A program made the translations under genes and the position numbers. DNA of 64,000 nt from an uncultured Lishizhenia sp. (GTDB lineage: Bacteria; Bacteroidota; Bacteroidia; Flavobacteriales_D; Crocinitomicaceae), in assembly GCA_964506255.1 (NCBI GenBank), contig CAZDKE010000005.1, forward strand, positions 2,876 to 66,875. The letters run 5' to 3'. This document shows positions 25,826 to 60,012 of this stretch, piece after piece. Below the pieces are notes generated by a model that saw only the letters and a list, made by a program, of their open reading frames with translations, had not been told where the DNA came from and did no database searches. Positions within the stretch are counted from its first letter, which is position 1; each line of letters opens with the position of its first letter.

Positions 25826-26869
25826 ATGGAAGAGAAAAGAAAAAAAATAATTTATTGGATTTTGCAAATTATAGGCTGGTTGATGTATGGAACCTTGCTT
25901 TTTCTTGCTGCCTATCGAAATGCTAACAATCAATTTAATTTGAAAATTGTCCTTAATCTTTCCATTTATATATTTCTAGGTATTTTATTAAGTCATTTTT
26001 TACGTTATTTATACCTTAAAAAACAATACTTTCAATTCAATGCGCCAATTCTAGTTTCTAGAATTATACTTTACTCAGGATTAGTATCTTTTATTTATAC
26101 AATCTCCAACAAATTAATCGCCTCCTTTATTTACTTAACTTTTTCAAAATGGGATTTATTTACCATCTTGTTAAATACTGCCTCAATTTATGTAGTTTTT
26201 ATTCTTTGGAGTTCCATCTATATCACCTTTCTTTTATTTGAAGAGTCACGTAAAAAGGAAATTAATAACTTACTTCTTACAAAAACACAAACAGAATTAG
26301 AACTTCAAAATTTGCGAGCGCAGTTGAATCCTCATTTTTTATTTAATTCATTAAATGCAATTCGCGCCTTGATTGAGGTAGAACCAGCAAAAGCAAAAAA
26401 TGGGATCAATCTATTATCTAATTTGTTGCGTTCAACTTTAAAATTAAATAGCGATAAATTAGTACCGATTCACAAGGAAATGGAATTAGTTGACGCTTAT
26501 CTTCAATTGGAGAAAATTCGTTTCGAGGAGCGATTAGAAGTGCGAAATTTTATTGATGATACTTGTCTCTACATTGAAATTCCAGCTTTTACCATTCAAA
26601 CATTGGTGGAAAACTCGATTAAACACGGCATTTCAATGCTGATTAATGGTGGATTTATTGAAATTAATGTTTACAAGGAAGAAGACCTTTGTCGAATTGT
26701 GGTTGTTAATTCAGGAACGTTAGGTGAAAAAGTGGATTTAGGAATTGGTTTGGATAATCTTAAAAAGAGATTAAAGTTGCAATATCAGGATAAGTTTACT
26801 TTCTCTATTGTTAGCTCTGGCGATTGCGTAAAAGTAGCAATTAGCATTCCAGCGAACATATCAATTTAA
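25826..26869 (+). CDS. LytS/YehU-type sensor histidine kinase (membrane sensor + His_kinase + HATPase)
   Basis: Five to six N-terminal TM helices, then QLNPHFLFNSLNAI (H-box of the LytS family) and a C-terminal ATPase domain with ENSIKHG. Confidence 0.8.
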   Translation: MEEKRKKIIYWILQIIGWLMYGTLLFLAAYRNANNQFNLKIVLNLSIYIFLGILLSHFLRYLYLKKQYFQFNAPILVSRIILYSGLVSFIYTISNKLIASFIYLTFSKWDLFTILLNTASIYVVFILWSSIYITFLLFEESRKKEINNLLLTKTQTELELQNLRAQLNPHFLFNSLNAIRALIEVEPAKAKNGINLLSNLLRSTLKLNSDKLVPIHKEMELVDAYLQLEKIRFEERLEVRNFIDDTCLYIEIPAFTIQTLVENSIKHGISMLINGGFIEINVYKEEDLCRIVVVNSGTLGEKVDLGIGLDNLKKRLKLQYQDKFTFSIVSSGDCVKVAISIPANISI

Positions 26870-26885
26870 TTTTTGTTTGCCAACT

Positions 26886-28361
26886 ATGAAGAAGTTAAAT
26901 GCAATTGTTATTGGTTCTGGAGTTGGCGGATTAGCTACAGCAATACGTTTGGCTAAAAAAGGAATTCAAGTCACTGTTTTTGAAGCAAACGCATTTCCCG
27001 GTGGAAAAGTTAATTCAAAGCAATTTGGCGATTATCGTTTTGATATGGGACCTTCTGTTTTCACGGAGCCACATTTAATTGATGAATTAATTTCACTTTC
27101 TGGTTCAAAAGAAGTTACTTTTCAATTTCATCAGCTGGAAGAATCTTGCCGCTATTTCTTTTCTGATGGTCAAGAATTAACAGTAATTGCTGGGGAAGAT
27201 AAAGTTGCTGAAACTTTTTCAAAAGCCTTAGGTGAAGACAAAACGGTTGTTGCTAATTTTCTAAAGCGTCAACGCAAAAACTATGAAGCAGTTTATCCTG
27301 TTTTTATTGCAGTTTCATTGCATCGTTTCAAGCATTGGTTTAATCGACATATCCCAAACGCATTGCTTCGATTGACAAAATATGGTCTTCTTAGCTCTAT
27401 GCACAAGGTGAATTCAAAAACATTTTCAAATCCAAAAACGACACAAATATTCGACCGATTGGCAACTTATAATGGAAGCAGTCCTTATAAAACGCCTGGA
27501 ATGTTGAACATTATTTCGCATTTGGAATTAAACGTTGGACCAGCAATGCCAGTAGGAGGGATGGTAGCAATTTCTGATACTTTGTATAAGTTGTGTTTAG
27601 AATTGGGTGTAAATTTTCGCTTTAATGAGAAAGTAACTTCTATTTTACATACAAATAATCAAGTTACTGGCGTTCAAACTTCATTAGGGAAATATTCCAC
27701 TGAAATTGTTGTGAGTAATATGGATGTTCATTTTACGTATGAAAAGTTGTTGTCTAATTTCGCCGCACCAAGCCTGAATTTAAAGCAAGAAAAATCGAGT
27801 TCGGCGATTGTTTTCTATTGGGGCATTAAGAAGCTGTTTCCAAAATTAGGGGTTCATTCTATTTTCTTTGCTGAAAATTATAAAGAAGAGTTTAAAGCTA
27901 TTTTTGAAACGAAGGAAGTGTATTATGATCCAACTATTTATGTTCACATCAGCTCTAAAGTTGAAAAAACGGATGCACCTTCATCAGGAGAAAATTGGTT
28001 TGTAATGATTAATTCTCCAATAAATGTTGGACAAAATTGGGACGAAGAAATTCAAAAAATACGAATTCACATTTTAAAAAAACTGAGTAAAGCTTTAGGT
28101 GAAGACATCGAACCATTAATTGAAGTCGAGGAAATCAATGAACCTCGAAAAATAGAAGCTATTTACAGTGGAAAACAAGGTTCAATTTATGGAAATTCTT
28201 CTAACAGTTCATTTGCTGCTTTTTATCGTCACCCTAATTTTTCAAAACAATTGAAAGGGCTTTATTTCGCTGGCGTTACGGTTCATCCTGGGGGAGGAAT
28301 TCCATTAGCCTTAAATAGTGCTAAAATTGTAGAAAGATGTGTTAAAGAGGATTTTCGATAA
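26886..28361 (+). CDS. phytoene desaturase (CrtI/CrtD) family FAD-dependent oxidoreductase
   Basis: MKKLNAIVIGSGVGGLATAIRLAKKG dinucleotide-binding fold and the C-terminal GLYFAGVTVHPGGGIP motif. ATG 26886 is preferred over the TTG at 26877. Confidence 0.8.
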   Translation: MKKLNAIVIGSGVGGLATAIRLAKKGIQVTVFEANAFPGGKVNSKQFGDYRFDMGPSVFTEPHLIDELISLSGSKEVTFQFHQLEESCRYFFSDGQELTVIAGEDKVAETFSKALGEDKTVVANFLKRQRKNYEAVYPVFIAVSLHRFKHWFNRHIPNALLRLTKYGLLSSMHKVNSKTFSNPKTTQIFDRLATYNGSSPYKTPGMLNIISHLELNVGPAMPVGGMVAISDTLYKLCLELGVNFRFNEKVTSILHTNNQVTGVQTSLGKYSTEIVVSNMDVHFTYEKLLSNFAAPSLNLKQEKSSSAIVFYWGIKKLFPKLGVHSIFFAENYKEEFKAIFETKEVYYDPTIYVHISSKVEKTDAPSSGENWFVMINSPINVGQNWDEEIQKIRIHILKKLSKALGEDIEPLIEVEEINEPRKIEAIYSGKQGSIYGNSSNSSFAAFYRHPNFSKQLKGLYFAGVTVHPGGGIPLALNSAKIVERCVKEDFR

Positions 28362-34060: not shown

Positions 34061-34085
34061 AATTTTCAAACCAATTTTAATTAGA

Positions 34086-34115
34086 AGTCATAAGTTTCCT
34101 TATGGCTTTTTTTTA
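34086..34115 (+). terminator. Rho-independent terminator after fabI
   Basis: agtcataag-tttc-cttatggct, a 9-bp stem with one G-U pair, followed by a T-run. Confidence 0.75.
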
Positions 34116-34209: not shown

Positions 34210-34217
34210 TACATTTG
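34210..34217 (+). promoter_or_regulatory. -7 promoter box (TACATTTG) heading the dab operon region
   Basis: TACATTTGcactGTG has the same box-N4-start geometry seen at smpB and the ATL gene. Confidence 0.4.
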
Positions 34218-34221: not shown

Positions 34222-34599
34222 GTGAAAAATTGTGTCTTCCATAAATGTATTCTTGTTGTTGCAGCTTTTTGTCTGTTCTTCAACAGCATTGGATTTCAAC
34301 ATTTTCCTATAGAGCCTCGAACTTTTTCCAAACTTCAATCGACAGAAATTTCAAGTGGTGAAGAGATAAAATCTTCTGTTTTGGTTTCATTTATTGACTC
34401 TGAAGAACGAAATTTAGAACTTGAAAATGAAAGAGATGCGGAAGAAGATGGGGATAATGACCATTTAATTGCAACACTAGAACAACAATTAATAGCGGTT
34501 TACATAAATGATTTCGATGAAAATTCAATTGAAAATCAAAGTGTAAAACACGCTCACAGCCTTCCACTTTACATTCAATACGAAAATTTTAGACTTTAG
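34222..34599 (+). CDS. hypothetical small protein (hydrophobic N-terminus, acidic C-terminal half); could instead be an untranslated leader
   Basis: Track ORF with a GTG start 4 nt after a -7 box. N-terminus CILVVAAFCLFFNSIGF, followed by an acidic region ELENERDAEEDGDNDH. No family recognised. Confidence 0.4.
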   Translation: MKNCVFHKCILVVAAFCLFFNSIGFQHFPIEPRTFSKLQSTEISSGEEIKSSVLVSFIDSEERNLELENERDAEEDGDNDHLIATLEQQLIAVYINDFDENSIENQSVKHAHSLPLYIQYENFRL

Positions 34600-34653: not shown

Positions 34654-37134
34654 ATGAACACAAATAAAAATTTCCAATTATCGGAAGTCGTTCATCACCT
34701 CAAACATTATTTACCTGCACAGGCACCTCTTAAAGATTTTATTCATCACAATACCCTTCATGCATTTCAAAGTGACAATTTTCACGATGCATTAAACGAA
34801 GCTAATAAAATTTTTGGATACAAAACCTACTTACAGATTGAGGATTTTCGACGACTTTTTAATGAAGGAAAAATAGATAAAGAAATTGTAATGCGATTTA
34901 TTCCATCAGAAAATCAAGCGATTTGGATGGATAAATTACTGAATCAAAAATGGGATGAAAGTAGTGTCCCACGTTGTGGATTACTCAGAAATCAGTGGAA
35001 AGAAAATTTCCATATCGATTTGGATTCAATGACACATCCGCTTTTATTCAGAATTGTGAGTAGTTACCTCGATCAAGGTATTTCAATTTGGAATTTCCCT
35101 GTTCATCACGTTGGATTTTTGCAAGCAATTCGCATTTTAGAATCCAATGGAACAGTTAGTTTTTTTAAAACGAAAAGAGCAAAAGCCTTATTAGCAAAAG
35201 AAGAAACAACAATTGAAGATCTTTTAAAATTGGTTGTTGGAAACGAAAAATGGTTTGAATATTACCTTTTTGATCAACAATTTGCGCATCCGGGTTATTC
35301 AGGAATTGTTGCAGTTTTAGAAGATAATCCAAATTTGTTAATTGATAATCGTACCGTTTCATTGACAGAATTCATGTTTTTTGAGTTGCTTCTTGAAATT
35401 GACACCTTAGATAATTACTTTGGTGAAATTTGGGCACCGATTTCTGTTAAAATGACAACGGATTTAGTTCCGCTTTTTGCACCAGTAGCAGTAGATGAGC
35501 TCAATGAAGTTAGAAGAATCTGGCAAGAAGCTTATGAATGGACTTATTATGATGAAGTAATAAATGGTATTTTACACAAACATCAAAGCGTTCTAGCAGA
35601 AACAGAATTACAGGCCTTATTTTGTATTGATGACCGCGAATGTTCAATTAGAAGACACATCGAAGAACAACTGCCAGGTGCTAAAACGTATGGAACAGCT
35701 GGGTTTTTCAATGTTGAGTTTTATTTTCAACCCGCTAATTCTGATTTTAGAACAAAAGTTTGTCCTGCGCCATTAACTCCCAAATATCTAGTAAAAGAAA
35801 TCATAGGCGATAAAAAGCAATCCACTGATTTTCATTTCCATAAACGAGCGCATGGTTTAGTTTTTGGTTGGTTGATTACGCACACGATTGGATTTTGGTC
35901 AGCATTGAAATTAGTTGGTTCAATTTTAAAACCTATTCAAAATGCTGCTGCTGTTTCGGCTGCTCGACACATGCATACAGATTCAGAATTGACTTATGAA
36001 AATCTTAATGGTGAAAGAACAGAGGATGGTTTGCAAATCGGATTTACAATTTCAGAAATGGCTGATCGATTGGAGGGATTGCTAAAAAGCATTGGTTTAG
36101 TTGATTGTTTTGCTCCGATAATTTATATCGTTGGACATGGTTCAAGTAGTTCCAATAATACTCATTATGCAGGTTATGATTGTGGTGCTTGTTCTGGACG
36201 TCCAGGTTCTGTTAATGCAAGGGTAATTTCAAAAATTGGAAACAATCCGAAAGTGAGAGCAATTTTAACTGAAAGAGGAATTGTTATTCCTGCATCCACA
36301 CAGTTTTTACCAGTTCTCCACGATACTTCCCGCGATGAGTTTTCCTATTTCGATACAGAGATTTTAAGTGAATCCAATAAAATAAGACAAGAGATTAATA
36401 ATGATGCATTTAATCGCGCATTGAATTTGAATGCAATGGAGCGTTCAAGAAGATTTGTCTTAGTGGATTCTCATAAAAACCTTAAAAAAGTGCATGAAGC
36501 CGTTAAATTACGTTCTGTTTCATTGTTTGAACCTCGACCAGAATTGAATCACTCTAACAATACATTGTGTATTGTTGGTCGCAGAGAAATCACTCGAAAT
36601 TTGTTCTTGGATAGAAGAGCTTTCTTAAATTCATTTGATTACCAAGTGGATCCAGAAGGTAAGTATTTATTAGGGATATTAAATGCAATCGCTCCTGTTT
36701 GTGGAGGAATTAATTTAGAATATTATTTCTCAAGAGTTGATAATCAAAAATTAGGTGCAGGCACAAAATTACCGCATAATGTGATGGGTTTAATTGGTGT
36801 AGCAAACGGGATTGATGGTGATTTACGAACAGGTTTACCAAGTCAAATGATTGAAGTTCATGATCCAATTCGATTATTAGCGATTGTGGAACATTTTTCA
36901 GAAGTGGTTTTGAAAACCATGCAAATCAATCCTGCAACGTATGAATGGTTTAAAAATGAATGGGTTCGATTAGTGGTAATTGATCCAGCTTCTAAAAAGC
37001 CATTTCTTTTTAAAAATGGTGCTTTTGAGCCGTATCATTTAGTGGATAGACAACTTCCTGAAGTGGATGATTTATTACCTGTTTTTAAGAAGGAACATAC
37101 TAATTTGCCAGTTTACGAACTTCAAACTCATTAA
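34654..37134 (+). CDS. dabA: DabA (DUF2309/UPF0753), beta-carbonic-anhydrase-like subunit of a DAB inorganic-carbon pump
   Basis: 826 aa. N-terminus ...LKHYLPAQAPLKDFIHHNTLHAF. Putative zinc ligands lie in LFCIDDRECS (Cys ~35623, Asp) and in GHGSSS...YDCGACSG (His ~36136, Cys 36181/36190). Confidence 0.85.
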   Translation: MNTNKNFQLSEVVHHLKHYLPAQAPLKDFIHHNTLHAFQSDNFHDALNEANKIFGYKTYLQIEDFRRLFNEGKIDKEIVMRFIPSENQAIWMDKLLNQKWDESSVPRCGLLRNQWKENFHIDLDSMTHPLLFRIVSSYLDQGISIWNFPVHHVGFLQAIRILESNGTVSFFKTKRAKALLAKEETTIEDLLKLVVGNEKWFEYYLFDQQFAHPGYSGIVAVLEDNPNLLIDNRTVSLTEFMFFELLLEIDTLDNYFGEIWAPISVKMTTDLVPLFAPVAVDELNEVRRIWQEAYEWTYYDEVINGILHKHQSVLAETELQALFCIDDRECSIRRHIEEQLPGAKTYGTAGFFNVEFYFQPANSDFRTKVCPAPLTPKYLVKEIIGDKKQSTDFHFHKRAHGLVFGWLITHTIGFWSALKLVGSILKPIQNAAAVSAARHMHTDSELTYENLNGERTEDGLQIGFTISEMADRLEGLLKSIGLVDCFAPIIYIVGHGSSSSNNTHYAGYDCGACSGRPGSVNARVISKIGNNPKVRAILTERGIVIPASTQFLPVLHDTSRDEFSYFDTEILSESNKIRQEINNDAFNRALNLNAMERSRRFVLVDSHKNLKKVHEAVKLRSVSLFEPRPELNHSNNTLCIVGRREITRNLFLDRRAFLNSFDYQVDPEGKYLLGILNAIAPVCGGINLEYYFSRVDNQKLGAGTKLPHNVMGLIGVANGIDGDLRTGLPSQMIEVHDPIRLLAIVEHFSEVVLKTMQINPATYEWFKNEWVRLVVIDPASKKPFLFKNGAFEPYHLVDRQLPEVDDLLPVFKKEHTNLPVYELQTH

Positions 37135-37137
37135 GCC

Positions 37138-39003
37138 ATGGAAGGATTTATTCATTTGTTTATTTTACTTCCATTTGTGAGTTTTTTCTTGAGTCTATTG
37201 ATTCCGAAGAAAAATGAACAGGCACTTTCTGTATTGGCTTACACTTCCGTTGGAATCCAGTTTTTTACAGCCTTGGTGTTCTCCGTTATTTGGATTATAA
37301 ATAAAATGCCGGTTATCAATTTGAAAGAGTTTTCGGTTTATCAAGCTTCCAATTACGACTTTTTTATTGATTTTTATTTTGATAAAATCACCTTAGTTTA
37401 CTTGATTTTAGGTTCAATGATAACGTTTGTAATTACCATTTATAGTCGTTATTATCTTCACCGAGAAGAAGGTTACAAAAGATTTTTCAATACCATTTTA
37501 TTCTTTTATCTAGGGTTTAACATCATTATTTTTTCTGGAAATGTTGAAACTTTATTTATCGGTTGGGAAATTTTGGGCTTATCTTCCTTTTTGTTAATCG
37601 CCTTTTATCGCGATCGCTATTTACCTGTAAAAAATGCGGTGAAGGTCTTTTCAATCTATCGTATTGGGGATGTTGGATTAATTTTGGTAATGTGGTTATC
37701 ACATCATTTATGGCATGAGAATATTTCATTTTTTAAACTCAATAATGCGGAACTTGTCCATTCACATTTGACGGAAAATTCACTAGTTGGATTGGCAATT
37801 TCAATGATGATATTTGTTTCAGCAGCTGCTAAATCGGCTCAATTACCTTTTTCATCGTGGTTGCCTCGTGCAATGGAAGGACCAACACCTTCAAGTGCTA
37901 TTTTTTATGGATCCTTATCGGTTCATATTGGCGCATTTTTGATGTTGCGAACTTATCCTTTTTGGGAATTTCAAACCGGATTTAGAATTTTCCTTGGTTT
38001 TGCGGGGTTCGCAACTGCAATTGTTTCCACCTTCATTGGTCGAGTTCAAAGCTCTATAAAAAGTCAAATCGCTTATTCTTCGATTGCTCAAATAGGCTTG
38101 ATTTTCATTGAAATCGCTTTAGGATTAGAAAATATTGCTTTAGTTCACATAACAGGAAATGCCTTTTTAAGAACGTATCAATTATTGGTTTCGCCTTCAA
38201 TTGTAAGTTATAAAATCAGAGAGCAGTTTTACAATTTCGTTCCTAGAGCTAAAACAATTGAAGATTCTTGGCCAAAACGAGTTGAATATGCGCTTTATAT
38301 TTTGAGTTTAAAAGAGTGGAATTTAGATAGTATGCTTTATGCTTATCTCTGGAATCCATTAAAGCGAATAGGTACATATTGGAAAATATTAAACTTTAAG
38401 TATATTTTTGTATTTGCTGGAATTGTAGTTTTTATTGGTTTGATTTTACTAAATTTCGCAACGATTATTCCTGAGAAATACAAAAGTAATTTTCCTGTTT
38501 TGTTTGCTATCGTTGGTTTTCTCATTGTTATCAAGGCATTTACAGAAAGAGATAGTGTTCGCAAAAGTTGGACATTAATTCTATTGAACCACCTAACAAT
38601 CGCAATCGCCATTTCTTTCAACGAACATTTTGATTGGATGCATCATGTTTGGTATTTAAGTGGAATCGTAACAGCCTGGTTTATTGGGTTAATAGTGTTA
38701 AACAACCTACGAAAACAAGAATGGGTAAGTTTGAATCAGTTTTATGGTCATTCGTATGAACATCCAAAAATTGCCATTCTGTTTTTGCTTTGCGCACTTG
38801 GATTGTCAGGATTTCCGATAACTCCTTCATTTGTTGGGGAGGATTTGATTTTTTCACACATTCACTACAATCAAATAGGTTTGGCTTTTTTCACTGCATT
38901 GAGCTTGATTATTAATGGACTAGCAACGATACGTATTTATGCACGTGTTTTTCTTGGTCCACATATTAAAACGTATCACGAGGTAGCAAAACGCTCTTCT
39001 TAG
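37138..39003 (+). CDS. dabB: DabB, NuoL/MrpA-like proton-conducting membrane subunit
   Basis: 621-aa polytopic protein with the NuoL/ND5 core (GWEILGLSSFLLI, AAAKSAQLPFSSWLPRAMEGPTP). It starts 3 nt after the dabA stop. Confidence 0.85.
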   Translation: MEGFIHLFILLPFVSFFLSLLIPKKNEQALSVLAYTSVGIQFFTALVFSVIWIINKMPVINLKEFSVYQASNYDFFIDFYFDKITLVYLILGSMITFVITIYSRYYLHREEGYKRFFNTILFFYLGFNIIIFSGNVETLFIGWEILGLSSFLLIAFYRDRYLPVKNAVKVFSIYRIGDVGLILVMWLSHHLWHENISFFKLNNAELVHSHLTENSLVGLAISMMIFVSAAAKSAQLPFSSWLPRAMEGPTPSSAIFYGSLSVHIGAFLMLRTYPFWEFQTGFRIFLGFAGFATAIVSTFIGRVQSSIKSQIAYSSIAQIGLIFIEIALGLENIALVHITGNAFLRTYQLLVSPSIVSYKIREQFYNFVPRAKTIEDSWPKRVEYALYILSLKEWNLDSMLYAYLWNPLKRIGTYWKILNFKYIFVFAGIVVFIGLILLNFATIIPEKYKSNFPVLFAIVGFLIVIKAFTERDSVRKSWTLILLNHLTIAIAISFNEHFDWMHHVWYLSGIVTAWFIGLIVLNNLRKQEWVSLNQFYGHSYEHPKIAILFLLCALGLSGFPITPSFVGEDLIFSHIHYNQIGLAFFTALSLIINGLATIRIYARVFLGPHIKTYHEVAKRSS

Positions 39004-39027: not shown

Positions 39028-40689
39028 ATGAAAAATATAATTCCAAAAGACGGATTTGAAGGATTAAAACAAAATTTTTCAAGTGACGCAATTTCAGGTT
39101 TTTTAGTGTTTCTCTTAGCTTTACCTTTAAGTTTAGGTATTGCAGGAGCAAGTGATTTCCCACCAATTTATGGATTAGTTTCTGCAATGATTGGTGGTTT
39201 GATAGTAACCTTTTTTGTTGGTTCACCACTGACAATCAAAGGTCCAGCAGCAGGTTTGATTGTGATTGTTGCGGGAGCAGTTGCTGAATTTGGTTTAGGT
39301 GCACCGCAAGGTTCAACAGCAGAAGAAATTGGCCGTTATGGTTGGCAATTAGCCCTTGGTGCTGTAGTGGTGGCTGGTGTTTTGCAAGTAATTTTTGGAC
39401 TTTTAAAGTTAGGAGGATTAAGTGATTTTTTCCCTTTACCTGCCGTTCATGGAATGTTAGCTGCTATTGGGATAATTATCATAAGTAAGCAAATACACAT
39501 TCTTGTTGGAATGAATCCATTAACATCCGAAGGAAAAGCGATGGTTGAACCGATGGAACTGTTACAAGAAATTCCAACGACTTTATCACACATATTCTTG
39601 CATGAACATGTTGCCATTGTTGGAATTCTAAGTTTAATCATCGTCTTTGGTTGGCCTTATATCCCGATTAAATTATTAAAGAAAATTCCAGCTTCATTGG
39701 TAGTGTTAGTTGTTGCAATTCCACTCACAAAAATCTTAGATATTCACAACAGTATGGAACTGAGAAATTCTGCTGGGATGCTGATAAATAAAGGGTATAA
39801 ACCACTTTTAGAATTTGATAAAGGATTATTGGACATTATCGGAATCAATGTTTCGTTTCAAGGATTTTCGCAAATTGGCGTTTTTATCAAATATGTGGTA
39901 ATGTTTGCTTTAGTTGGAAGTTTAGAGGCTTTATTAACCTTAAAAGCAATCGATTTATTAGATCCATTTAAAAGAAAATCAAATTCTAATAAAGATTTGG
40001 TTGCCGTTGGAATTGGGAATATTATCGCTGGTGTGTTAGGAGGATTACCGATGATTAGTGAAGTTGCTCGTTCTTCTGCAAATATTAGCAATGGCGGAAA
40101 AACGCGTTGGGCCAATTTCTTTCACGGATTTTTTATCTTGATTTTCTTACTGTTTGCTGTCTATTTTTCAGATTTAATTCCAAAATCAGCTTTGGCAGCT
40201 ATGTTAATTGGAGTAGGGTGGAAGTTAGCTCATCCAAGGGAATTTGGAAGCATGATTAAAATTGGAACAGATCAGTTTTTAATTTTTGTTGTTACCATTA
40301 TTTTCACTTTGATTACCGATTTATTAATTGGTATTGCAGCAGGGATTTTACTGAAATTGATTATGCATTTGATACATGGTGTGCCAGCAAAAAGTTTATT
40401 CAACGCGCAAACAATAGTTAAAGAATCGGGTCTTGAAGTACATGGTGCTGTTGTGTTTAGCAACTTTATCAAAGTGAAAAATTTATTGAATAAATTTCCA
40501 AAAACAGAAGAAATTTTCTTGGATGTTCGGGATTGTAAACTTATTGACCACTCTGTAATTGAATCAATACATCATTTAAAAGGTGAATTCAAAGAAGAAG
40601 GTGGTTCACTAACAATTATAGGAATCGAAGAATTTAAAAATATGAACCGTTCTACGCATGAATTGGCGACCAAAAAAAAGAAAAAATGA
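39028..40689 (+). CDS. SulP family inorganic anion transporter with C-terminal STAS domain (BicA-like)
   Basis: N-terminal SulP signature (DAISGFLVFLLALPLSLGIAGAS), about 10-12 TM helices, and a C-terminal STAS-like ~110 aa. Confidence 0.85.
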   Translation: MKNIIPKDGFEGLKQNFSSDAISGFLVFLLALPLSLGIAGASDFPPIYGLVSAMIGGLIVTFFVGSPLTIKGPAAGLIVIVAGAVAEFGLGAPQGSTAEEIGRYGWQLALGAVVVAGVLQVIFGLLKLGGLSDFFPLPAVHGMLAAIGIIIISKQIHILVGMNPLTSEGKAMVEPMELLQEIPTTLSHIFLHEHVAIVGILSLIIVFGWPYIPIKLLKKIPASLVVLVVAIPLTKILDIHNSMELRNSAGMLINKGYKPLLEFDKGLLDIIGINVSFQGFSQIGVFIKYVVMFALVGSLEALLTLKAIDLLDPFKRKSNSNKDLVAVGIGNIIAGVLGGLPMISEVARSSANISNGGKTRWANFFHGFFILIFLLFAVYFSDLIPKSALAAMLIGVGWKLAHPREFGSMIKIGTDQFLIFVVTIIFTLITDLLIGIAAGILLKLIMHLIHGVPAKSLFNAQTIVKESGLEVHGAVVFSNFIKVKNLLNKFPKTEEIFLDVRDCKLIDHSVIESIHHLKGEFKEEGGSLTIIGIEEFKNMNRSTHELATKKKKK

Positions 40690-41456
40690 GATTTAAATCA
40701 TTTTTATTCGTGGTAACTATTGCTGTTTGTAATCTAGCTTTTTCTCAGAAAACGATTAGCAATCAGAATCATGCTTGGGTGACTTATTTAGGAAACCATA
40801 AATTGACAGATAAAATTAGTTTGCATACTGAATATCAATGGCGTCGTGCGGATGGATTTCAAAATTGGCAACAATCTTTGGCAAGAATTGGTATTGATTA
40901 TAATTTACTTCCAAATTTTTCTATCACAGCAGGTTATGGATGGATTGTTTCTTATCCGTATGGTGATCAAGCAATCGCACACACCTATAACGAACATCGT
41001 ATTTGGCAACAAGTTAATGCTAAGGCTAAATATGGACGATTTGAATTGCAACATCGCTATCGTTTAGAACAACGTTTCTTGGAAAATTACATCAGAAATC
41101 AAGACGGAACTTTTTCGAAAGGAGCTGATTTATTCCGTCAACGAGTCCGATATCGAGCAATGGTTTTGGTTCCATTATCGCGCAAAGAAATGTTAGATAA
41201 TACCTTGTTTTTAAACGTAAACAACGAGCTATTTCTTGGTTTTGGAAAAGGAATAGGAAAAAATATTTTAGACCAAAACCGAATGAATTTTGCTCTTGGT
41301 TGGCGCTTCAACAAAGATTTTAATGTTCAAATGGGTTATTTGAATCAATTTGTTGTGAAATCGGATGGCGTTAAAGCAGAGCGAAATCATACTTTACTCA
41401 TTTCAACCGTCCATAATATTGATTTTACAAAAAGGAAAAAAGCATTTAAGATGTAG
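40686..41456 (+). CDS. DUF2490-like predicted outer-membrane beta-barrel protein
   Basis: Signal peptide, then Tyr/Trp/Arg-rich alternating strands (HTEYQWRR, ELQHRYRLEQRF). ATGA overlap with the SulP gene. Confidence 0.65.
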   Translation: MRFKSFLFVVTIAVCNLAFSQKTISNQNHAWVTYLGNHKLTDKISLHTEYQWRRADGFQNWQQSLARIGIDYNLLPNFSITAGYGWIVSYPYGDQAIAHTYNEHRIWQQVNAKAKYGRFELQHRYRLEQRFLENYIRNQDGTFSKGADLFRQRVRYRAMVLVPLSRKEMLDNTLFLNVNNELFLGFGKGIGKNILDQNRMNFALGWRFNKDFNVQMGYLNQFVVKSDGVKAERNHTLLISTVHNIDFTKRKKAFKM

Positions 41457-45542: not shown

Positions 45543-45995
45543 ATGTCAGTGAAAGAACTAAATATTCGCAATAAAAAAGCCAAGTTTGAATACTATTTAG
45601 AGGATCAATTTACCGCTGGAATTCAACTTTCAGGAACTGAAATCAAAAGTATTAGAAGCGGAAAGGCTAGTATTTTAGAAGCATACTGTATATGTGAAAA
45701 CCGTGAAGTTTGGATTCGAAATATGCACATCAATGAGTATGTGAATGGTTCGTTTTATAATCATAAACCAAAGGCCGATAGAAAACTGTTACTCAATAAA
45801 AAAGAAATTATTTCAATAGAGAAATTTCTGAAAATAAAAGGGAATACCCTTGTTCCATTAAAATTATTTTTATCTGAAAAAGGTTGGGTTAAGGTTGAGT
45901 TTGCTTGTGCAACTGGTAAAAAACTCCATGATAAACGCCAAGATTTGAAGGAAAAGGATGATAGACGTGAAATGGATCGAGCAATGAAAAAGTAA
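45543..45995 (+). CDS. smpB: SsrA-binding protein SmpB
   Basis: 150 aa: NKKAKFEY...G.EIKS.R.GK.S motif and a basic C-terminal tail. Confidence 0.95.
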   Translation: MSVKELNIRNKKAKFEYYLEDQFTAGIQLSGTEIKSIRSGKASILEAYCICENREVWIRNMHINEYVNGSFYNHKPKADRKLLLNKKEIISIEKFLKIKGNTLVPLKLFLSEKGWVKVEFACATGKKLHDKRQDLKEKDDRREMDRAMKK

Positions 45996-46248: not shown

Positions 46249-47883
46249 ATGTCAAAAAAAATAGTTAAACTTTTATTTTTGGTTTTTTGCTTTTCTCAAT
46301 TTTATTTCGCTCAAGAAAATCCAAAAAATAAATCATTAGGTGGCTCAAATTATAATTCACAAACTTCTTTTGAATCGTATAAAAAACATTCAGTTAGCTT
46401 TGATATTGGTGGAAAAGATGGTGTTAGGTATCCTGGTGTTACGTCAACAAGAATAACACAAATTAATTCATATGTTTTAGGATACAGATACATGTTCAAT
46501 AATCGGTTTGGAATTTCTCCAGAGTTCGGTTGGGAAAGGTTTAAAGATTTAAACGATAGTGTTGGAACAGGGCATTATATGCGCTTCTCCATGCAAACAT
46601 GTTATAATTTGACAGATTTATTGAGATTCAATTCTTTTTCAAAAAGACTTGGAATGCTTGCAATCGCTGGAGCTGGTTACTCGATATGTTTTAATCCCTC
46701 CGGTGTAGTTTCCCTTACTGATACATCTACCTATACTTTATTAGGGGATGAAAAGATTGATAAAATGCTAAGTGGTTATTTTGGTGCAAGGGTTATGTTT
46801 AAATGTACTGAAAAATTTAGTATTCATAGTACATTAGGTACTGTATTTAATTTGAGACAAGATAGAACTTTTGATGGTCAAAGAAAACTTGGGAGGGGAG
46901 GATTTACTGGGAAATATTACAATTTAACTCTTGGTGCAACTTTATATTTGGGCAAACAAAAACAGCATGCTGATTGGTATTCCAGCAAAATTCAAGAAAA
47001 AGATAATTATCTAGAAATATCAAGTCAATTAAGTATTTTAAGAAAGTCATTGGAGGATGATGATGCAGATGGTGTAATTAATGCGGTAGATGTTTCACCG
47101 AATACCCCTGAAGGGACATTAGTTGACTTGAAGGGAGTACCTTTAACTAAAGACACTGTTTCATTAGGAAATAGTTTGAAATTAATTGAAGGAATAGACA
47201 GTTTGAAAAATGGCGATTCTTTATTAGTAATTCAACTAATAAATGAATTTTCCAATGAGTTCACAACTCAATTGAATATGTTAAAAAAGGAATTGGAAAG
47301 TGATACTTTACATCACAGAAGTAATTCTCGAAATTCAGACGACTTCGATAATGATGGACTAAACAATTCTGTGGACATATGTCCCTATATTAAAGGGCAA
47401 AGTTTTGGATGTCCTGATAGCGATAACGATGGTATACCTGATTTTATGGATGCATGTCCTGAGCTTCCAGGAACATTGAAATTTAATGGTTGTAGTGAAG
47501 GTGATTATAAGGTAGAATCAATCGTTAATAAATCAAGTTTAATTTTGGAAGAAAATGGTGTTTATGATGTTTTATTTGAAATTAATAAAAGTGAGTTACT
47601 TCTTTCAAGTAAATTGATTTTGGATCGTCTAGTTAAGTTGATGAATAATGAAAAAGATTTAAAGATTATCATATCTGGGCACGCTGACAAAACAGGCAAT
47701 AAAGAGAACAATGAAAAATTATCAAGGCAACGCGCTGAAACATGTCAAAAATATTTAGTATCCAAAGGTATTGAAGCAGATAGATTGATTATCGAATTTT
47801 ATGGTTCCGAAATTGAAAAATACACTTCTAACGGCGTTGATTTAAATCTTGCGAATAGAAGAGTTTCTTTTAGAGTAAAGTAA
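46249..47883 (+). CDS. OmpA family outer-membrane protein with thrombospondin type-3 (calcium-binding) repeats
   Basis: Signal peptide and an N-terminal barrel. Asp-rich repeats DDDADGVINAVDVSPNTPEG, DDFDNDGLNNSVDICP and DSDNDGIPDFMDACP. C-terminal OmpA domain (GHADKTGN...LS..RA...NRRV). Confidence 0.85.
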   Translation: MSKKIVKLLFLVFCFSQFYFAQENPKNKSLGGSNYNSQTSFESYKKHSVSFDIGGKDGVRYPGVTSTRITQINSYVLGYRYMFNNRFGISPEFGWERFKDLNDSVGTGHYMRFSMQTCYNLTDLLRFNSFSKRLGMLAIAGAGYSICFNPSGVVSLTDTSTYTLLGDEKIDKMLSGYFGARVMFKCTEKFSIHSTLGTVFNLRQDRTFDGQRKLGRGGFTGKYYNLTLGATLYLGKQKQHADWYSSKIQEKDNYLEISSQLSILRKSLEDDDADGVINAVDVSPNTPEGTLVDLKGVPLTKDTVSLGNSLKLIEGIDSLKNGDSLLVIQLINEFSNEFTTQLNMLKKELESDTLHHRSNSRNSDDFDNDGLNNSVDICPYIKGQSFGCPDSDNDGIPDFMDACPELPGTLKFNGCSEGDYKVESIVNKSSLILEENGVYDVLFEINKSELLLSSKLILDRLVKLMNNEKDLKIIISGHADKTGNKENNEKLSRQRAETCQKYLVSKGIEADRLIIEFYGSEIEKYTSNGVDLNLANRRVSFRVK

Positions 47884-47899
47884 CATTAATAATCACATA

Positions 47900-48904
47900 A
47901 TGAAAACAGTTTTGATTTCAGGTGCGGCAGGATTTATTGGTTATCATTTATGTGTTAATCTGTTAAAATTAGGTTATAAAGTTGTTGGTTTAGACAATAT
48001 CAATGGTTACTATGATATTAAACTAAAGATGGCACGATTGAATGAATTAGGTATTCGAGATGTCTATGAACATAAACTTTCAAAAAGTATAATTTATGAT
48101 TCACAGTTTCAATTTGTAAAAATGTCCTTGGAGGATCAAATTCATTTGCCTCAATTGTTTCAAAAGTTCGATTTTGATGTAGTTTGCAATCTAGCTGCAC
48201 AAGCGGGTGTTAGGTACAGTATTGAAGACCCAATGGTTTATGCAGAAAGTAATATTATTGGTTTTCTAAATCTTCTAGAATGTATTCGAAATTATAAGGT
48301 TAAAAAACTTGTATATGCAAGTAGCTCAAGTGTTTATGGAAATAGTGATCAAGTTCCTTTTACAACTGAACAAACTGTGGATGAACCTATAAGTTTATAT
48401 GCTGCTTCGAAGAAAACGAATGAATTAATGGCTCATACTTATTCACATTTATTTGGTTTTCAAACAATTGGCCTTAGGTTTTTTACTGTTTATGGTCCTT
48501 GGGGGCGTCCAGATATGGCAATGTTTTTATTCACAGATGCAATTTTAAACAATCGACCAATCAAGGTTTTTAATCACGGAGAATTATATCGTGATTTCAC
48601 TTATATAGATGACATTGTAGAAGGGCTCACAGCAACAATTGAAAAACCAAATTCAAAACAATATGCTATTTATAATATTGGTAATTCAAAACCAATTAAA
48701 CTTTTGGATTTTATAAACGAAATCGAAACAAATTTGGGTAGAGTTGCTGTAAAAGAAATGCTTCCAATGCAAGCTGGTGATGTTGAAAAGACTTGGGCAG
48801 ATGTAACTAATCTTCAAAAAGACTATGATTACAAACCAACTACAGATGTGAAAACCGGTGTCGGTAATTTTATAGAATGGTATAAAGCATTTTACTTAAG
48901 TTGA
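47900..48904 (+). CDS. NAD-dependent sugar-nucleotide epimerase (UDP-glucuronate 4-epimerase-like)
   Basis: GAAGFIGYHL Rossmann motif and catalytic YAASKKTNE. Resembles the Cap1J/WbnF-type uronate epimerases. Confidence 0.8.
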   Translation: MKTVLISGAAGFIGYHLCVNLLKLGYKVVGLDNINGYYDIKLKMARLNELGIRDVYEHKLSKSIIYDSQFQFVKMSLEDQIHLPQLFQKFDFDVVCNLAAQAGVRYSIEDPMVYAESNIIGFLNLLECIRNYKVKKLVYASSSSVYGNSDQVPFTTEQTVDEPISLYAASKKTNELMAHTYSHLFGFQTIGLRFFTVYGPWGRPDMAMFLFTDAILNNRPIKVFNHGELYRDFTYIDDIVEGLTATIEKPNSKQYAIYNIGNSKPIKLLDFINEIETNLGRVAVKEMLPMQAGDVEKTWADVTNLQKDYDYKPTTDVKTGVGNFIEWYKAFYLS

Positions 48905-50341
48905 ATGTCATTAAAAAAACAAGCAATATCGGGAGTTTTTTGGACAGGTCTTCAACAGTTCGGAAGACAAGGTATTGCCTTTGTAACCTCAATTGTTTTA
49001 GCAAGAATTCTATCACCATATGAATTTGGTTTGATTGCAATGATTGGGATTTTTATTGCACTGGGTGACAGTTTAATAAAAAGTGGTCTTACTAATTCTT
49101 TGATTCGCACAGAGAATATAAACGAAGATGATTACTCTACTGTTTTCATTTTTAACATGGTCGGTAGTGTGCTCATCTATTTGATAATGTTTCTATTAGC
49201 TCCGTTTATTGCTAATTTTTATAAACAAATCGAACTAGTTGAAATAATTAGATGGTATAGTTTGGTTTTTATAATAAATGCATTGTCAGCAGTTCAATTG
49301 ACAAGATTAACCAAGATAATGGATTTCAAAACTCAATTAATCGTTTCGCTCCCATCAATTATAATTAGCAGTTTAATTGGGATTTATATGGCCTATGCTA
49401 ATTATGGAGTCTGGAGTTTAATTTGGAGTGCCATTATACAATCGCTGCTTTCAACAGTTCAAGTTTGGTTTTATTCGAAATGGATTCCAAATTTTGTCTT
49501 TAGCATTGAAAAATTTAAATTACATTTCACTTATGGTTTTAAAATAATGTTATCAAGCCTTTTGGATATAATTTTTGTAAATATCTACACCTTAGTAATT
49601 GGACGTTTTTTCCATCCTTTACAGGTCGGTTATTACAATAGAGCAAACACATTGCAAATGTTTCCTGTCACCAATCTCAGTATGATAGTAAATAAAGTTT
49701 CTTTTCCTTTATTTGCATCTATTCAAAATGATGATATTCGTTTAAAAGAAGTTTACAGAAAAATGATGCAATTAGTCTTGTTCATTAGTGCACCGATTTT
49801 AGTTTTAATGGCAGTTTTGGCTGAACCAATTTTCAGATTTTTGTTCACAGAAAAATGGCTTCCTGCTGTTCCATATTTTCAAATTTTATGCTATAACGGT
49901 ATCTTGTATCCTATTCATTCTTATAATCTTCAAATATTAAATGTAAAAGGCAGAAGTGATCTTTTTCTAAAATTGGAGGTTCTTAAAAAATCGTTAGTGG
50001 TAGTAATGATTCTGATTACATTTCAATTCGGAATTTATGGGCTTTTAATAGGAAGTACTATCACTTCAACAATTGCATTTTTTATTAATACTTATTTTTC
50101 AGGAAAACTAATAAATTACAATGCTTTTAGCCAAATTAAAGATTTAATGCCGATTCTTGTGATTACTTCTTTGATGGGAGGTTTGATTTTCTTTTCCGAT
50201 TATTTTGCAAAAAACTTTTTATCTGATTTTGTAAGAATAGTTAGTCTAGGTTTATTAGGTGTAGGGATTTTTATCTCATTTTCTTTATTTTTTAAATTAA
50301 ATTCTTATATTGAGCTAAAAAGTATAATTCTAAAAAAATGA
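48905..50341 (+). CDS. polysaccharide flippase (Wzx/MOP family)
   Basis: 478 aa with about 12-14 TM helices and the N-terminal pattern of Wzx-type polysaccharide biosynthesis proteins. Confidence 0.75.
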   Translation: MSLKKQAISGVFWTGLQQFGRQGIAFVTSIVLARILSPYEFGLIAMIGIFIALGDSLIKSGLTNSLIRTENINEDDYSTVFIFNMVGSVLIYLIMFLLAPFIANFYKQIELVEIIRWYSLVFIINALSAVQLTRLTKIMDFKTQLIVSLPSIIISSLIGIYMAYANYGVWSLIWSAIIQSLLSTVQVWFYSKWIPNFVFSIEKFKLHFTYGFKIMLSSLLDIIFVNIYTLVIGRFFHPLQVGYYNRANTLQMFPVTNLSMIVNKVSFPLFASIQNDDIRLKEVYRKMMQLVLFISAPILVLMAVLAEPIFRFLFTEKWLPAVPYFQILCYNGILYPIHSYNLQILNVKGRSDLFLKLEVLKKSLVVVMILITFQFGIYGLLIGSTITSTIAFFINTYFSGKLINYNAFSQIKDLMPILVITSLMGGLIFFSDYFAKNFLSDFVRIVSLGLLGVGIFISFSLFFKLNSYIELKSIILKK

Positions 50342-52343: not shown

Positions 52344-52356
52344 AAACCTACATATT

Positions 52357-52890: not shown

Positions 52891-52891
52891 A

Positions 52892-60007: not shown

Positions 60008-60012
60008 TAAAT

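Follow-up and report, generated by a model that had tools for sequence, protein, structure and literature searches.

DAB and MpsAB complexes rescue carbonic-anhydrase-free mutants of E. coli and S. aureus. The founding DAB preprint (10.1101/476713) described DabA in genomes without RuBisCO already in 2018/19, proposed a supply of bicarbonate to biotin carboxylases, and named pH regulation as a possible role of carbonic anhydrase (CA). Experimental examples of bicarbonate supply are MpsAB of S. aureus (PMC6689103, PMC8552792) and NdhF-YbcC of B. subtilis, which contributes to growth in air (10.64898/2026.09.08.750065). Given these precedents, a DAB system in a heterotroph, whose role the original prediction called unexplained, poses no puzzle in principle and is not new in itself. 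The cryo-EM papers of 2026 present five residues as defining or essential: the active-site Leu, coupling Trp and finger Glu of DabA and, in DabB, a His of TM8 and a Lys of TM11. In the DAB2 complex of H. neapolitanus (Hn), both H260 of DabB2 and E444 of DabA2 are essential, mutations of W656 uncouple the complex, and the L658Q substitution gave no uncoupled in-vitro CA activity. In DAB1, the lid motif and a Cys-Pro gate the buried active site. Phillips et al. describe the turnover of DAB as acidifying, with one proton admitted and one generated per bicarbonate. All functional data on DAB complexes come from those of the Leu type.

The window analysed here is a stretch of 64,000 nucleotides, in which two ORFs on the + strand, each with an ATG start, occupy positions 34654..37134 (826 aa) and 37138..39003 (621 aa) with a stop-to-start gap of 3 nt, as originally predicted. 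Judged by profile matches, they are genuine homologues of the DabA/DabB inorganic-carbon pump. The 826-aa protein covers Pfam PF10070 from end to end (1-747/747, E 2.1e-210), and the matches of its partner to PF00662 and PF00361 agree with the expected NuoL/Mrp-like identity. The gene content of the window (T9SS cargo, peptidases, a GH3 enzyme and polysaccharide-synthesis genes) provides a heterotrophic context. A Pfam scan of 37 window ORFs (628-16589 and 18281-50341) detected no RuBisCO, carboxysome or carbonic-anhydrase family, which bears out the remark that no CO2-fixation gene is in view. At about 50.3-63.1 kb, the ORFs continue a same-strand polysaccharide-biosynthesis cluster.

The pair had been taken for a two-gene unit. 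The dabA/dabB pairing stands, but the unit is not limited to it, as the cassette consists of five genes on the + strand: a small membrane ORF (34222..34599, 125 aa, GTG start), dabA, dabB, sulP encoding a SulP-family anion permease (39028..40689, 553 aa; PF00916, E 4e-63) and a DUF2490 gene (40686..41456, 256 aa; PF10677, E 7e-51). The dabB and sulP genes are separated by 24 nt, and sulP and the DUF2490 gene overlap by 4 nt. The likely 5′ boundary of the transcription unit is a terminator-like hairpin with a 12-bp stem and a T-run directly after fabI (34083..34110, + strand), although such sites around the cassette do not exceed the shuffled expectation, which makes the hairpin weak evidence alone. 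The small ORF has no Pfam or NCBIfam match; a hydrophobic segment at its N-terminus is followed by a linker, acidic and variable, and by the conserved C-terminal ending ...P..LYIxxxNFR[LI]. In 62 of 81 loci, dabA is preceded by a same-strand ORF of 90-180 aa that ends no more than 250 nt away, and 49 of these 62 belong to one BLAST-linked family. The DUF2490 protein has a signal-peptide-like N-terminus and also matches, weakly, a Pfam family of outer-membrane channels; it probably forms a beta-barrel in the outer membrane. Its gene is present in 32 of 80 related loci, while in 26 loci the position is taken by a 440-aa signal-peptide protein. The cassette is transcribed: the lake cDNA metatranscriptome X24 contains contigs on all five genes, 90-99% identical and mostly at least 95%. 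One contig (34243-35609) crosses the small-ORF/dabA junction, the dabA/dabB junction is spanned as well, and another contig (40992-41461) lies on the DUF2490 gene. These are assembled contigs of low depth from a related population, which show presence and not regulation.

The zinc site of DabA could be placed by alignment with the DabA2 structure of H. neapolitanus. In a phmmer search of the PDB, residues 318-778 of the window protein align to 9RD0_A (E 8.8e-60), and the four zinc-site residues proposed earlier, together with the dyad Arg, fall on their counterparts: Hn C351, D353, R355, H524 and C539 correspond to window C324, D326, R328, H495 and C510. The zinc site consists of C324, H495 and C510, and the Asp-Arg dyad of D326 and R328. 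The motifs quoted in the original prediction were all located, FCIDDRECS at residues 323-331, GHGSSS at 494-499 and YDCGACSG inside NNTHYAGYDCGACSG (501-515). None of the five catalytic residues varies among 81 Bacteroidota sequences, and they are kept in 145-149 of 150 family representatives. The lid (GTAGFFN, 347-353) and the Cys-Pro (VCPAP) are present as well. The difference lies further downstream, where characterised DabAs have DWxxxRPEWGL and the window protein has S623-L624...R628-P-E-L631-N632-H633. Within the codons of L631-N632-H633 (36544..36552, + strand), H633 stands at the position of the active-site Leu (L658 in Hn, L825 in T. albus) and L631 at that of the coupling Trp (Hn W656). 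The HMMER alignment around RPE is ungapped with posterior '*', which supports this placement. The active-site residue is His in 81/81 Bacteroidota sequences and 146 of 150 representatives (His, or once Gln, in 147), whereas it is Leu in 8/8 comparators, where it was reported as strictly conserved. Such a His is the canonical residue of beta-CA and CsoSCA-type enzymes.

The DabB subunit differs in a similar manner. Its residues were placed by alignments to NuoL and DabB2, and they include E144 (TM5), R175 and D178 (TM6), K232 (TM7) and the TM12-type motif GFPITPSFVGEDLIF (558-572) with E568 and D569. Of these, the TM5 Glu and the TM12 Glu-Asp represent the two half-channels of the antiporter type, and both are kept. 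In TM8, Y257 replaces H254 of NuoL and H260 of Hn DabB2, and in TM11 the window has H337..N341..R345 against H334..H338..K342 of NuoL; Tyr, Asn and Arg hence stand in place of the His, His and Lys of NuoL/DabB2. E144, K232, Y257, H337, R345 and E568/D569 are invariant across 75 Bacteroidota DabB sequences. DabB partners from other phyla (n=7) again have the TM5, TM7 and TM8 residues together with the Arg of TM11, and four of them keep the second TM11 His. The DabB residues co-vary with the type of DabA, in 82/82 His-type and 7/7 Leu-type pairs.

The window DabA belongs to a well-separated His-type clade (bootstrap 100/100) with members in Bacteroidota, Myxococcota and Planctomycetota, and the sampled carriers are all freshwater or soil heterotrophs. 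Carriers in culture include Runella, Emticicia, Arcicella and Flavobacterium proteolyticum. No experimentally characterised member was found in the literature. As the window pair comes from a different clade with several key residues replaced, the H. neapolitanus mechanism, cited in the original prediction, is not simply transferable. How the pair is coupled cannot be read off from DAB1/DAB2, since all five residues singled out by the cryo-EM papers (Leu, Trp and Glu in DabA, His and Lys in DabB) are replaced. In particular, the change of H260 to Tyr and of W656 to Leu and the absence of E444 mean that ion coupling in the window pair could differ or be lost.

The clade is also distinguished by its SulP partner, which is found in 71 of 80 related loci, whereas none of seven Leu-type DAB loci has a SulP gene nearby. 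The order SulP-DabA-DabB occurs in Archangium and Sorangium (the Myxococcota link) and in three further His-type clades. The closest association is a 1390-aa SulP-DabA fusion (P0122; PF00916 at 22-394, PF10070 at 556-1323), known from six full-length copies in separate Saprospiraceae assemblies and one independent read-level assembly. The fusion gene is preceded by an equivalent 125-aa ORF and followed by a 622-aa DabB gene. Among solved structures, the window SulP, which has a weak C-terminal STAS match, is most similar to 6KI1_A, with SLC26 Cl-/HCO3- exchangers next. The NCBIfam BicA equivalog gives 117 bits (E 1e-33), and as the cut-off is 880, assignment as a BicA orthologue was rejected. 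These matches make bicarbonate a likely substrate, and from its context the permease would be the bicarbonate transporter of the cassette. Were SulP an importer, joining it to an enzyme that already releases the imported anion into that compartment would bring no evident kinetic gain, and the fusion fits export or a metabolon at least as well as import.

Public annotations name the DabB protein as NADH-quinone oxidoreductase subunit L or MnhA, and the best NCBIfam, PDB sequence and Foldseek matches (the last from an AF2 model, pLDDT 66.6, closest to E. coli NuoL) are likewise NuoL. A plain complex I or Mrp subunit with incidental adjacency to dabA is nevertheless extremely improbable: the NuoL score is 212 bits against an equivalog cut-off of 556, no other nuo/mrp genes adjoin the window dabB, the gene adjoins dabA in 79 of 80 related loci and in all of the examined His-type loci from other phyla, and its residues track the type of DabA. 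A different possibility arises because the canonical catalytic His is kept while both residues that connect the two subunits in DAB2, the Trp and the finger Glu, are missing. DabA could then be an ordinary reversible beta-CA forming a non-vectorial, membrane-tethered transport metabolon with SulP, with DabB mainly as an anchor or regulator. The near-universal His/Gln at the transition-state-stabilising position, precisely the residues that canonical beta-CAs and CsoSCA employ there, is consistent with this, and so is the variability (L, Y, C, W or F) of the W656-equivalent position in the His-type clade. SulP-beta-CA fusions have reportedly been described. This reading is quite unlikely, since the invariant charged and polar channel residues of DabB, recurring across phyla, argue for a working ion path and not an anchor. 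DabB is moreover more conserved than DabA in the closest relative (94% vs 87% identity), the lid and Cys-Pro that gate the buried DAB1 site are conserved, and a change at the Leu position of DAB2 (L658Q) did not release CA activity.

The substrate itself may also be questioned. Some hydrolases of COS and CS2 have a beta-CA fold, the surroundings of the active site are unlike those of characterised DabAs, and SulP scores higher against the generic sulfate-permease and DauA models than against BicA. A hydrolase of COS, CS2 or cyanate, for example, coupled to a SulP that moves a sulfur-containing or different anion, is very improbable, as the full catalytic set (Cys-His-Cys, Asp-Arg dyad, His hydrogen-bond donor) is kept and the related loci have no conserved sulfur-metabolism genes around the cassette. 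The enzymes that occasionally co-occur close by are ordinary beta-CAs and not sulfur enzymes. If cytoplasmic, such a CA would dissipate an accumulated bicarbonate pool, which counts against import. Rather unlikely, in turn, is a role in pH or ion homeostasis, in which DabAB would hydrate CO2 of metabolic or ambient origin in the cytoplasm to a proton and bicarbonate and admit further cations through DabB, SulP would export bicarbonate, and the outer-membrane barrel would let it out. The net acidification of the cytoplasm would help in weakly buffered lakes, whose water becomes alkaline during algal blooms. The acidifying turnover described by Phillips et al., the use of the Mrp/Nuo family in alkaline pH homeostasis, the direct product hand-over to an exporter that the fusion would permit, the habitats of the carriers and the mention of pH in the founding preprint fit such a role. 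Against it, every tested DAB/Mps system raises cellular inorganic carbon and rescues bicarbonate auxotrophy, and none was shown to act as a pH device. To our knowledge, characterised prokaryotic SulP bicarbonate carriers, e.g., BicA, are importers. No conserved pH-response regulator adjoins the cassette in the related loci.

The reading that we favour by a modest degree is that of an ion-coupled module for CO2 hydration and bicarbonate transport, which would feed heterotrophic carboxylases. In a freshwater heterotrophic Bacteroidota host (Crocinitomicaceae/Flavobacteriales-like), the five genes would be co-transcribed, and DabA would be a cytoplasmic beta-carbonic-anhydrase-like zinc enzyme seated on the NuoL-like membrane subunit DabB. 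The two subunits would jointly convert CO2 to bicarbonate, coupled to the ion flow through DabB. SulP would transport bicarbonate through the inner membrane, with import, as by BicA, the most likely direction, and the DUF2490 barrel would allow the passage of anions through the outer membrane. Cyanobacteria have an analogous layout, in which a bicarbonate importer works alongside the CO2-recapturing NDH-1/Cup complex. For the family, the His-type branch, with its different active site and ion path and its SulP partnership, appears to be undescribed; for the organism, the bicarbonate may serve anaplerotic reactions, acetyl-CoA carboxylase and carbamoyl-phosphate synthetase.

The two open reading frames lie on the plus strand where the original prediction had placed them, at 34654–37134 (826 aa) and 37138–39003 (621 aa), with 3 nt between them. 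The assignment of the first product to the DabA family was also right, as it covers the whole Pfam model PF10070 (1–747 of 747, E 2.1e-210, 701 bits against a cut-off of 25), and its residues 318–778 align to chain A of the DAB2 structure from Halothiobacillus neapolitanus (9RD0_A, E 8.8e-60, phmmer against PDB). NCBIfam gave nothing for DabA at E ≤ 0.001, hence no subfamily assignment comes from this source. The product of dabB matches PF00361 and PF00662 (Pfam). Residues were mapped between the window DabA and H. neapolitanus DabA2 in an alignment of 239 sequences, where C324, D326, R328, H495, and C510 match C351, D353, R355, H524, and C539. Since these five residues align and are also invariant in 81 close relatives from Bacteroidota, the zinc ligands proposed earlier, for which an alignment to H. 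neapolitanus DabA had been set as a check, are borne out. The two-gene unit of PF10070 and PF00361 proteins, the Cys-His-Cys zinc site, and the Asp-Arg dyad are all shared with DAB2 of H. neapolitanus (Desmarais et al. 2019; Lo et al. 2026). Energy-coupled inorganic-carbon uptake and the rescue of a carbonic-anhydrase-free strain are predicted for the pair.

No RuBisCO, carboxysome, or carbonic-anhydrase gene was found by Pfam in 37 ORFs of the window (628–16589 and 18281–50341, with about 50.3–63.1 kb excluded), in agreement with the original prediction. T9SS cargo, peptidases, a GH3 enzyme, and a polysaccharide cluster are present among the scanned ORFs, and this gene content fits a heterotroph. 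The question of what the pair does in such an organism, raised as unexplained, has for the most part been answered by earlier papers. Many DabA homologues occur in RuBisCO-free genomes, where the supply of bicarbonate to biotin carboxylases or pH regulation has been proposed (10.1101/476713), and two experimentally supported DAB-family pairs of heterotrophs, MpsAB of Staphylococcus aureus and NdhF-YbcC/MpsB of Bacillus subtilis, provide bicarbonate for growth in air (MpsAB and B. subtilis papers). Thus, the occurrence of a DAB in a heterotroph has precedents.

Several other regions of the window were recorded alongside. Very large secreted proteins with CHU_C type IX secretion signal domains are encoded at 3861–7148 (minus strand) and 10792–14871 (plus strand), the latter also bearing DUF7948 and PKD repeats. 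At 18281–21608 (minus strand), a protein of 936 aa that weakly matches the VIT domain is followed by a fragment-sized exosortase (EpsH-like) ORF of 179 aa, and this pair may be an exosortase-type sorting system. At 25826–28361 (plus strand), a gene for a membrane His_kinase of the LytS type is directly followed by a flavin amine-oxidase/phytoene-desaturase-like gene. The long same-strand run of genes at 46249–63094 (plus strand), has the appearance of a cluster for polysaccharide biosynthesis; its first three genes, which were scanned, encode a protein with OmpA and thrombospondin repeats, an epimerase, and a flippase of the Wzx type.

One difference between the window DabA and the characterised systems lies in the active site. 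In their cryo-EM work, Phillips et al. 2026 (DAB1) and Lo et al. 2026 (DAB2) described an active-site Leu (L658 in H. neapolitanus, L825 in Thermocrinis albus), which replaces the canonical Gln/His and is called strictly or broadly conserved. The motif DW(xxx)RPEWGL is specific to DABs, mutation of its second Trp (W656 in H. neapolitanus) uncouples the complex, and the Glu of the DabA membrane finger (E444 in H. neapolitanus) is essential in DAB2 (Phillips et al., Lo et al.). The window DabA has His633 in place of Leu658 and Leu631 in place of Trp656. His occupies the Leu658 position in all 81 Bacteroidota relatives; among the nearest 150 representatives of 50%-identity clusters, 146 have His there and one has Gln. 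All eight comparators (H. neapolitanus DabA2, Thiodictyon, Pantoea, Leisingera, Pseudoalteromonas, the MpsB-like protein of a Staphylococcus pettenkoferi plasmid, Haloarcula, and Mycolicibacterium) have Leu there together with the associated motifs. These two forms are referred to as the His type and the Leu type, with the reservation that few Leu-type sequences were sampled (eight, and T. albus from the text of the paper) and that the His-type sampling has the window at its centre.

The surrounding motifs follow the same division. The RPE motif reads SLFEPRPELNH in the window, with only R-P-E kept and Ser-Leu for Asp-Trp, against DW...[RY]PEW[GA]L in the Leu type; the text of Phillips et al. 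gives DW(xxx)RPEWGL with Trp823 and Leu825 for T. albus DabA1. The context of the dyad is CIDDRE in place of CID[VT]R[SC] (CIDVRS in H. neapolitanus), and the loop ahead of the zinc Cys is AGYDCGAC in place of xLDCGAC. In the full loop NNPxxxxLDCGACGG, for which the window has NNTHYAGYDCGACSG, the residues N501, D509, and C510 are retained, with Tyr in place of Leu. The lid GI(A/G)GFFG corresponds to GTAGFFN with the GFF core kept. The GFF core of the lid, the NN...DCGAC loop in part, and the RPE motif are likenesses to DAB2. The finger Glu is present in 8/8 Leu-type comparators, whereas the His-type hairpin, in a region that aligns with gaps, has no acidic residue and a His or Gln nearby; in this alignment, the window DabA has no counterpart of Glu444. 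One likeness is to DAB1 rather than DAB2: the lid Cys-Pro of T. albus (C494-P495), in which C494F/W uncouples the complex (Phillips et al.), is found in the window DabA as well (VCPAP, residues ~370–372; columns C559/P560 of alignment A1) and is invariant in distant His-type representatives, while H. neapolitanus DabA2 has Asn-Pro. The position of His633 is also occupied by a His (H397) in CsoSCA (2FGY), the beta-carbonic anhydrase of alpha-carboxysomes and the closest structural relative of DabA (Phillips et al.), which differs in being soluble, shell-associated, and devoid of a membrane partner.

A neighbor-joining tree of 34 sequences and 437 core columns, which is unrooted, splits the two types with a bootstrap of 100/100, and the active-site His may be ancestral or a reversion. 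The His-type clade also holds forms of ~1000 aa from Myxococcota and Planctomycetota, likewise heterotrophs. Judged by these alignments, the window DabA differs in type from every characterised DabA examined, and no His-type member is characterised as far as checked, with S. aureus MpsB and the DabA proteins of Bacillus anthracis and Vibrio cholerae lying outside the comparison. The literature yielded no description of a His-type, SulP-linked subtype, neither for DUF2309 together with SulP nor for DabA in Bacteroidota, Myxococcota, or Planctomycetes, the latter search being too unspecific to show absence, and such a cross-phylum variant of DAB is apparently undescribed. It contradicts the "strictly conserved" residues of current mechanistic models.

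The membrane subunit was compared with Escherichia coli NuoL and H. neapolitanus DabB2, with the numbering anchored on K229/H254/H334 and K235/H260, respectively. The window DabB keeps the Glu of TM5 (E144), which is absent from all seven other DabBs and is Ile151 in DabB2, described as an adaptation by Lo et al. The Arg and Asp of TM6 and the Lys of TM7 (K232) are kept too. At the TM8 His site (H254 in NuoL, H260 in DabB2), the window protein has Tyr257; in DabB2, H260A abolishes the function of DAB2. In TM11, H337..N341..R345 stands against His..His..Lys of the others. Thus, K232 and H337 are retained as in DAB2, Tyr257, Asn341, and Arg345 are substituted, and all of them are invariant in 75 sequences. 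The same TM5 Glu, TM7 Lys, TM8 Tyr, and TM11 Arg occur in 7/7 His-type partners outside the 80 Bacteroidota loci inspected for gene content (Myxococcota, Planctomycetota, three intermediate clades, and a fusion locus). Four of these seven keep the second TM11 His, therefore the His-to-Asn change is not clade-wide. The type of DabB tracks that of DabA, with Tyr/Arg in 82/82 His-type pairs and His/Lys in 7/7 Leu-type pairs.

The window DabB, at 621 aa against 551 aa in H. neapolitanus, has its own broken-helix motif of the TM12 type, GFPITPSFVGEDLIF, whose counterpart in NuoL, AGFFSKDEIL, bears K399/D400. Its G567-E568-D569 is conserved in 73–75 of the 75 DabB sequences. DabB2 is devoid of the TM12 element, which is replaced by the finger Glu444 of DabA (Lo et al.). 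If this is right, the missing finger Glu of the His type and its retained TM12 Glu-Asp would be two sides of one architectural difference. Four one-subunit systems outside the 80 loci (L091, L093, L094, and L095) likewise have a TM12 Glu-Asp/Glu motif in DabB. The His-type systems of Myxococcota and Planctomycetota have two membrane subunits, and the C-terminus of the window DabB resembles the TM12–14 part of the second one. In Archangium and Sorangium, the motif sits in this second subunit (FVGEDL), and Paludisphaera has GLE instead of GED there (FIGLEM). This second subunit, a PF00361 protein of ~500 aa in which the TM5 Glu and the TM8 His are lost, is encoded at L088:11632–13158, L089:11469–12950, and L090:11495–13024, and an ECF sigma/anti-sigma pair lies upstream in the two Myxococcota loci. 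The possession of more membrane protein than DAB2, either as a second subunit or as the related C-terminal extension of the Bacteroidota DabB, is shared with DAB1 of T. albus and H. neapolitanus (DabA1/DabB1/DabC). However, DabC is small and without a Pfam domain, whereas the His-type second subunit is a full PF00361 protein or merged into DabB. The AF2 model of the window DabB (pLDDT 66.6, below 50 around 562–568) has a helix-break-helix at 543–572 and, compared at full length, matches E. coli NuoL best (TM ~0.54), with no DabB2 chain in the top 50; at this confidence, it hints at a NuoL-like overall fold.

Close relatives of the window DabA were found in 562 species-representative genomes, and gene content was taken from the loci of the best 80, all from Bacteroidota (Crocinitomicaceae, Flavobacteriales, Saprospiraceae, Cyclobacteriaceae, Runella, Emticicia, Arcicella, and Flavobacterium). 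In this set, dabB follows dabA in 79/80 loci, and a SulP permease is present in 71/80, mostly directly downstream and in Saprospiraceae upstream. The window has SulP at 39028–40689, 24 nt after dabB, and its gene overlaps by 4 nt that of the DUF2490 protein (40686–41456), which follows SulP in 32/80 loci. Another 26 loci have after sulP a signal-peptide protein of ~440 aa without a Pfam match (e.g., L030:7797–9194), and in these DUF2490-free loci it may be an alternative outer-membrane channel. The link to SulP extends to a fusion, represented by the 1390-aa family representative P0122, in which PF00916 covers residues 22–394 and PF10070 residues 556–1323. Its reading as a DabB-DabA fusion was dismissed, as the N-terminus is SulP. 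Six copies of full length were seen, each in a different Saprospiraceae assembly, and the locus order (small ORF, SulP::DabA, a 622-aa DabB, and a weak beta-carbonic-anhydrase-like ORF) is found in an NCBI MAG and again in a locus assembled independently at read level. The order SulP-DabA-DabB also exists beyond Bacteroidota, in Archangium, Sorangium, and three more clades, and is absent in Paludisphaera and one other. SulP was found near Leu-type DabA in 0/7 comparator loci. The window SulP is a member of the general SulP family (PF00916, E 4e-63), below the NCBIfam equivalog cut-off for BicA (116.7 bits against 880). Its best match among solved structures is 6KI1_A, presumably the membrane domain of BicA, with SLC26 Cl−/HCO3− exchangers next by small margins.

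A small ORF of ~115–135 aa precedes dabA in most loci (34222–34599 in the window). Its N-terminus is hydrophobic, its linker acidic, and its C-terminal end, ...LYIxxxNFR[LI], conserved. An equivalence to DabC was rejected, as it has one hydrophobic segment and not a half-NuoM helix bundle. A strong hairpin with a T-run at 34083–34110 separates the cassette from fabI and is the only noteworthy result of the sigma-70 promoter and terminator scan, whose counts are at the shuffled expectation. The Bacteroidetes −7 motif TAnnTTTG is not enriched (88 found, 108 expected), and its copy at 34210–34217 is too near the start codon to interpret. Rfam assigned no family at gathering score across the 64-kb window, with no riboswitch or leader detected; smpB is encoded at 45543–45995, yet no tmRNA or tRNA reached that score in the window. 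No exact match to the window DabA is on record, and the population of the window was found in lake, river, and estuary metagenomes. Contigs from the cDNA metatranscriptome X24, 90–99% identical and most at ≥ 95%, lie on all five genes of the cassette; one spans the junction of the small ORF and dabA, and another that of dabA and dabB. These contigs, assembled and of low depth, show transcription, not regulation. A beta-carbonic-anhydrase-like ORF lies near the cassette in seven related loci, and the window has none. The Saprospiraceae fusion locus has a weak Pro_CA match directly after dabB, without an obvious signal peptide (L091:12057–12602), and true beta-carbonic anhydrases lie ~6 kb downstream of the cassette in Runella (L050:20312–21007 and L054).

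The organization of the cassette also differs from that of known systems. The window has the order A-B, whereas 7/7 Leu-type loci with an annotated dabB, H. neapolitanus itself lying outside these seven, have B-A. Unlike DAB2, the window cassette is linked to SulP and has no LysR regulator nearby; unlike DAB1, it has no carboxysome context. MpsAB, argued to be Na+/bicarbonate-coupled, has no SulP partner, and the plasmid homologue of S. pettenkoferi (mpsA-mpsB-small-ORF) is of the Leu type, with His/His/Lys in DabB and the order B-A. The functional logic of a SulP-family carrier next to a NuoL-like (NdhF-like) subunit bearing a zinc CO2-hydrating protein resembles the cyanobacterial carbon-concentrating set of BicA, a SulP bicarbonate importer, and NDH-1MS/CupA. 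Nevertheless, CupA is unrelated to DabA and redox-driven within NDH-1, the cyanobacterial genes lie outside one operon, their system serves RuBisCO in carboxysomes, and the window SulP fails the BicA threshold. Bacterial fusions and gene neighbours of SulP and beta-carbonic anhydrase were reportedly described by Felce and Saier in 2004. Such a joining of SulP to a domain of carbonic-anhydrase fold, seen in the present case as well, suggests bicarbonate as the transported anion. Here, in contrast, the fused domain is a DabA of ~830 aa that also needs a NuoL-like subunit, and in most genomes, the window included, sulP and dabA are separate genes.

The best-supported reading of these comparisons, which has slightly better than an even chance of being correct, is a module in which DabAB would be an ion-coupled CO2-hydrating complex and SulP a bicarbonate carrier working with it. 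An outer-membrane channel would complete the module, and heterotrophic carboxylations would receive the bicarbonate. That an outer-membrane component is needed speaks for the passage of an ion, besides CO2, through the envelope. The SulP-DabA fusion fits well with an acidifying pH-homeostasis device that exports bicarbonate, and this role is unlikely but deserves some weight. The retained canonical His and the lost Trp link would suit a carbonic anhydrase tethered to the membrane in a non-vectorial metabolon. Such an arrangement is improbable, as the DabB channel residues are invariant and DabB is more conserved than DabA. That the substrate is other than CO2 and bicarbonate is very improbable. 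The DabB partner (37138–39003 in the window, and relatives P0426–P0541) is listed in public sources as "NADH-quinone oxidoreductase subunit L" or "MnhA", but a NuoL of complex I is ruled out for practical purposes by the score of 212 bits against the NCBIfam equivalog cut-off of 556 and by the context, with no adjacent nuo genes. Because of the constant adjacency to dabA and the sub-threshold NuoL score, the NuoL and MnhA labels are, on the present comparison, misleading for pathway reconstruction.

A bolder proposal than the ion-coupled module itself, tentative and judged well short of even, is that the cassette stands for a third class of DAB with a mechanism of its own, combining a canonical carbonic-anhydrase site, a complete antiporter-type ion path, and SulP as a physical partner. 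In such a class, the His would be kept as a hydrogen-bond donor, and the path would lead from the TM5 Glu to the TM12 Glu-Asp through a centre lined by Tyr and Arg. Its coupling could depart from that of DAB1 and DAB2. The proton from CO2 hydration might be removed through DabB, by analogy with what is proposed for NDH-1MS/CupA, Na+ might be used for coupling, or the bicarbonate product might be channelled straight into SulP in a metabolon of CO2 hydration and anion transport.

Two cryo-EM studies of 2026 base their models of vectorial CO2 hydration on residues that they call strictly or highly conserved: in DabA, the Leu of the active site, the linking Trp, and the Glu of the finger, and in DabB, the His of TM8 and the Lys of TM11. 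All of these residues are replaced together in the large natural clade of the window, which has close relatives in at least 562 species genomes and related forms in Myxococcota and Planctomycetota. If the third class is true, the active-site Leu, the Trp link, and the finger Glu would not be universal to vectorial carbonic anhydrases, as claimed, but confined to a single branch. The clade is a ready-made comparative test of which features energy coupling needs. Common freshwater heterotrophs (Crocinitomicaceae, Saprospiraceae, Runella, and Flavobacterium) invest in a dedicated module, putatively for inorganic carbon, which is transcribed and has an outer-membrane component; this bears on the estimates of dark or anaplerotic CO2 fixation in lakes. 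As its DabB is widely labelled NuoL or MnhA and its SulP a sulfate permease, pathway reconstructions would miss the system.
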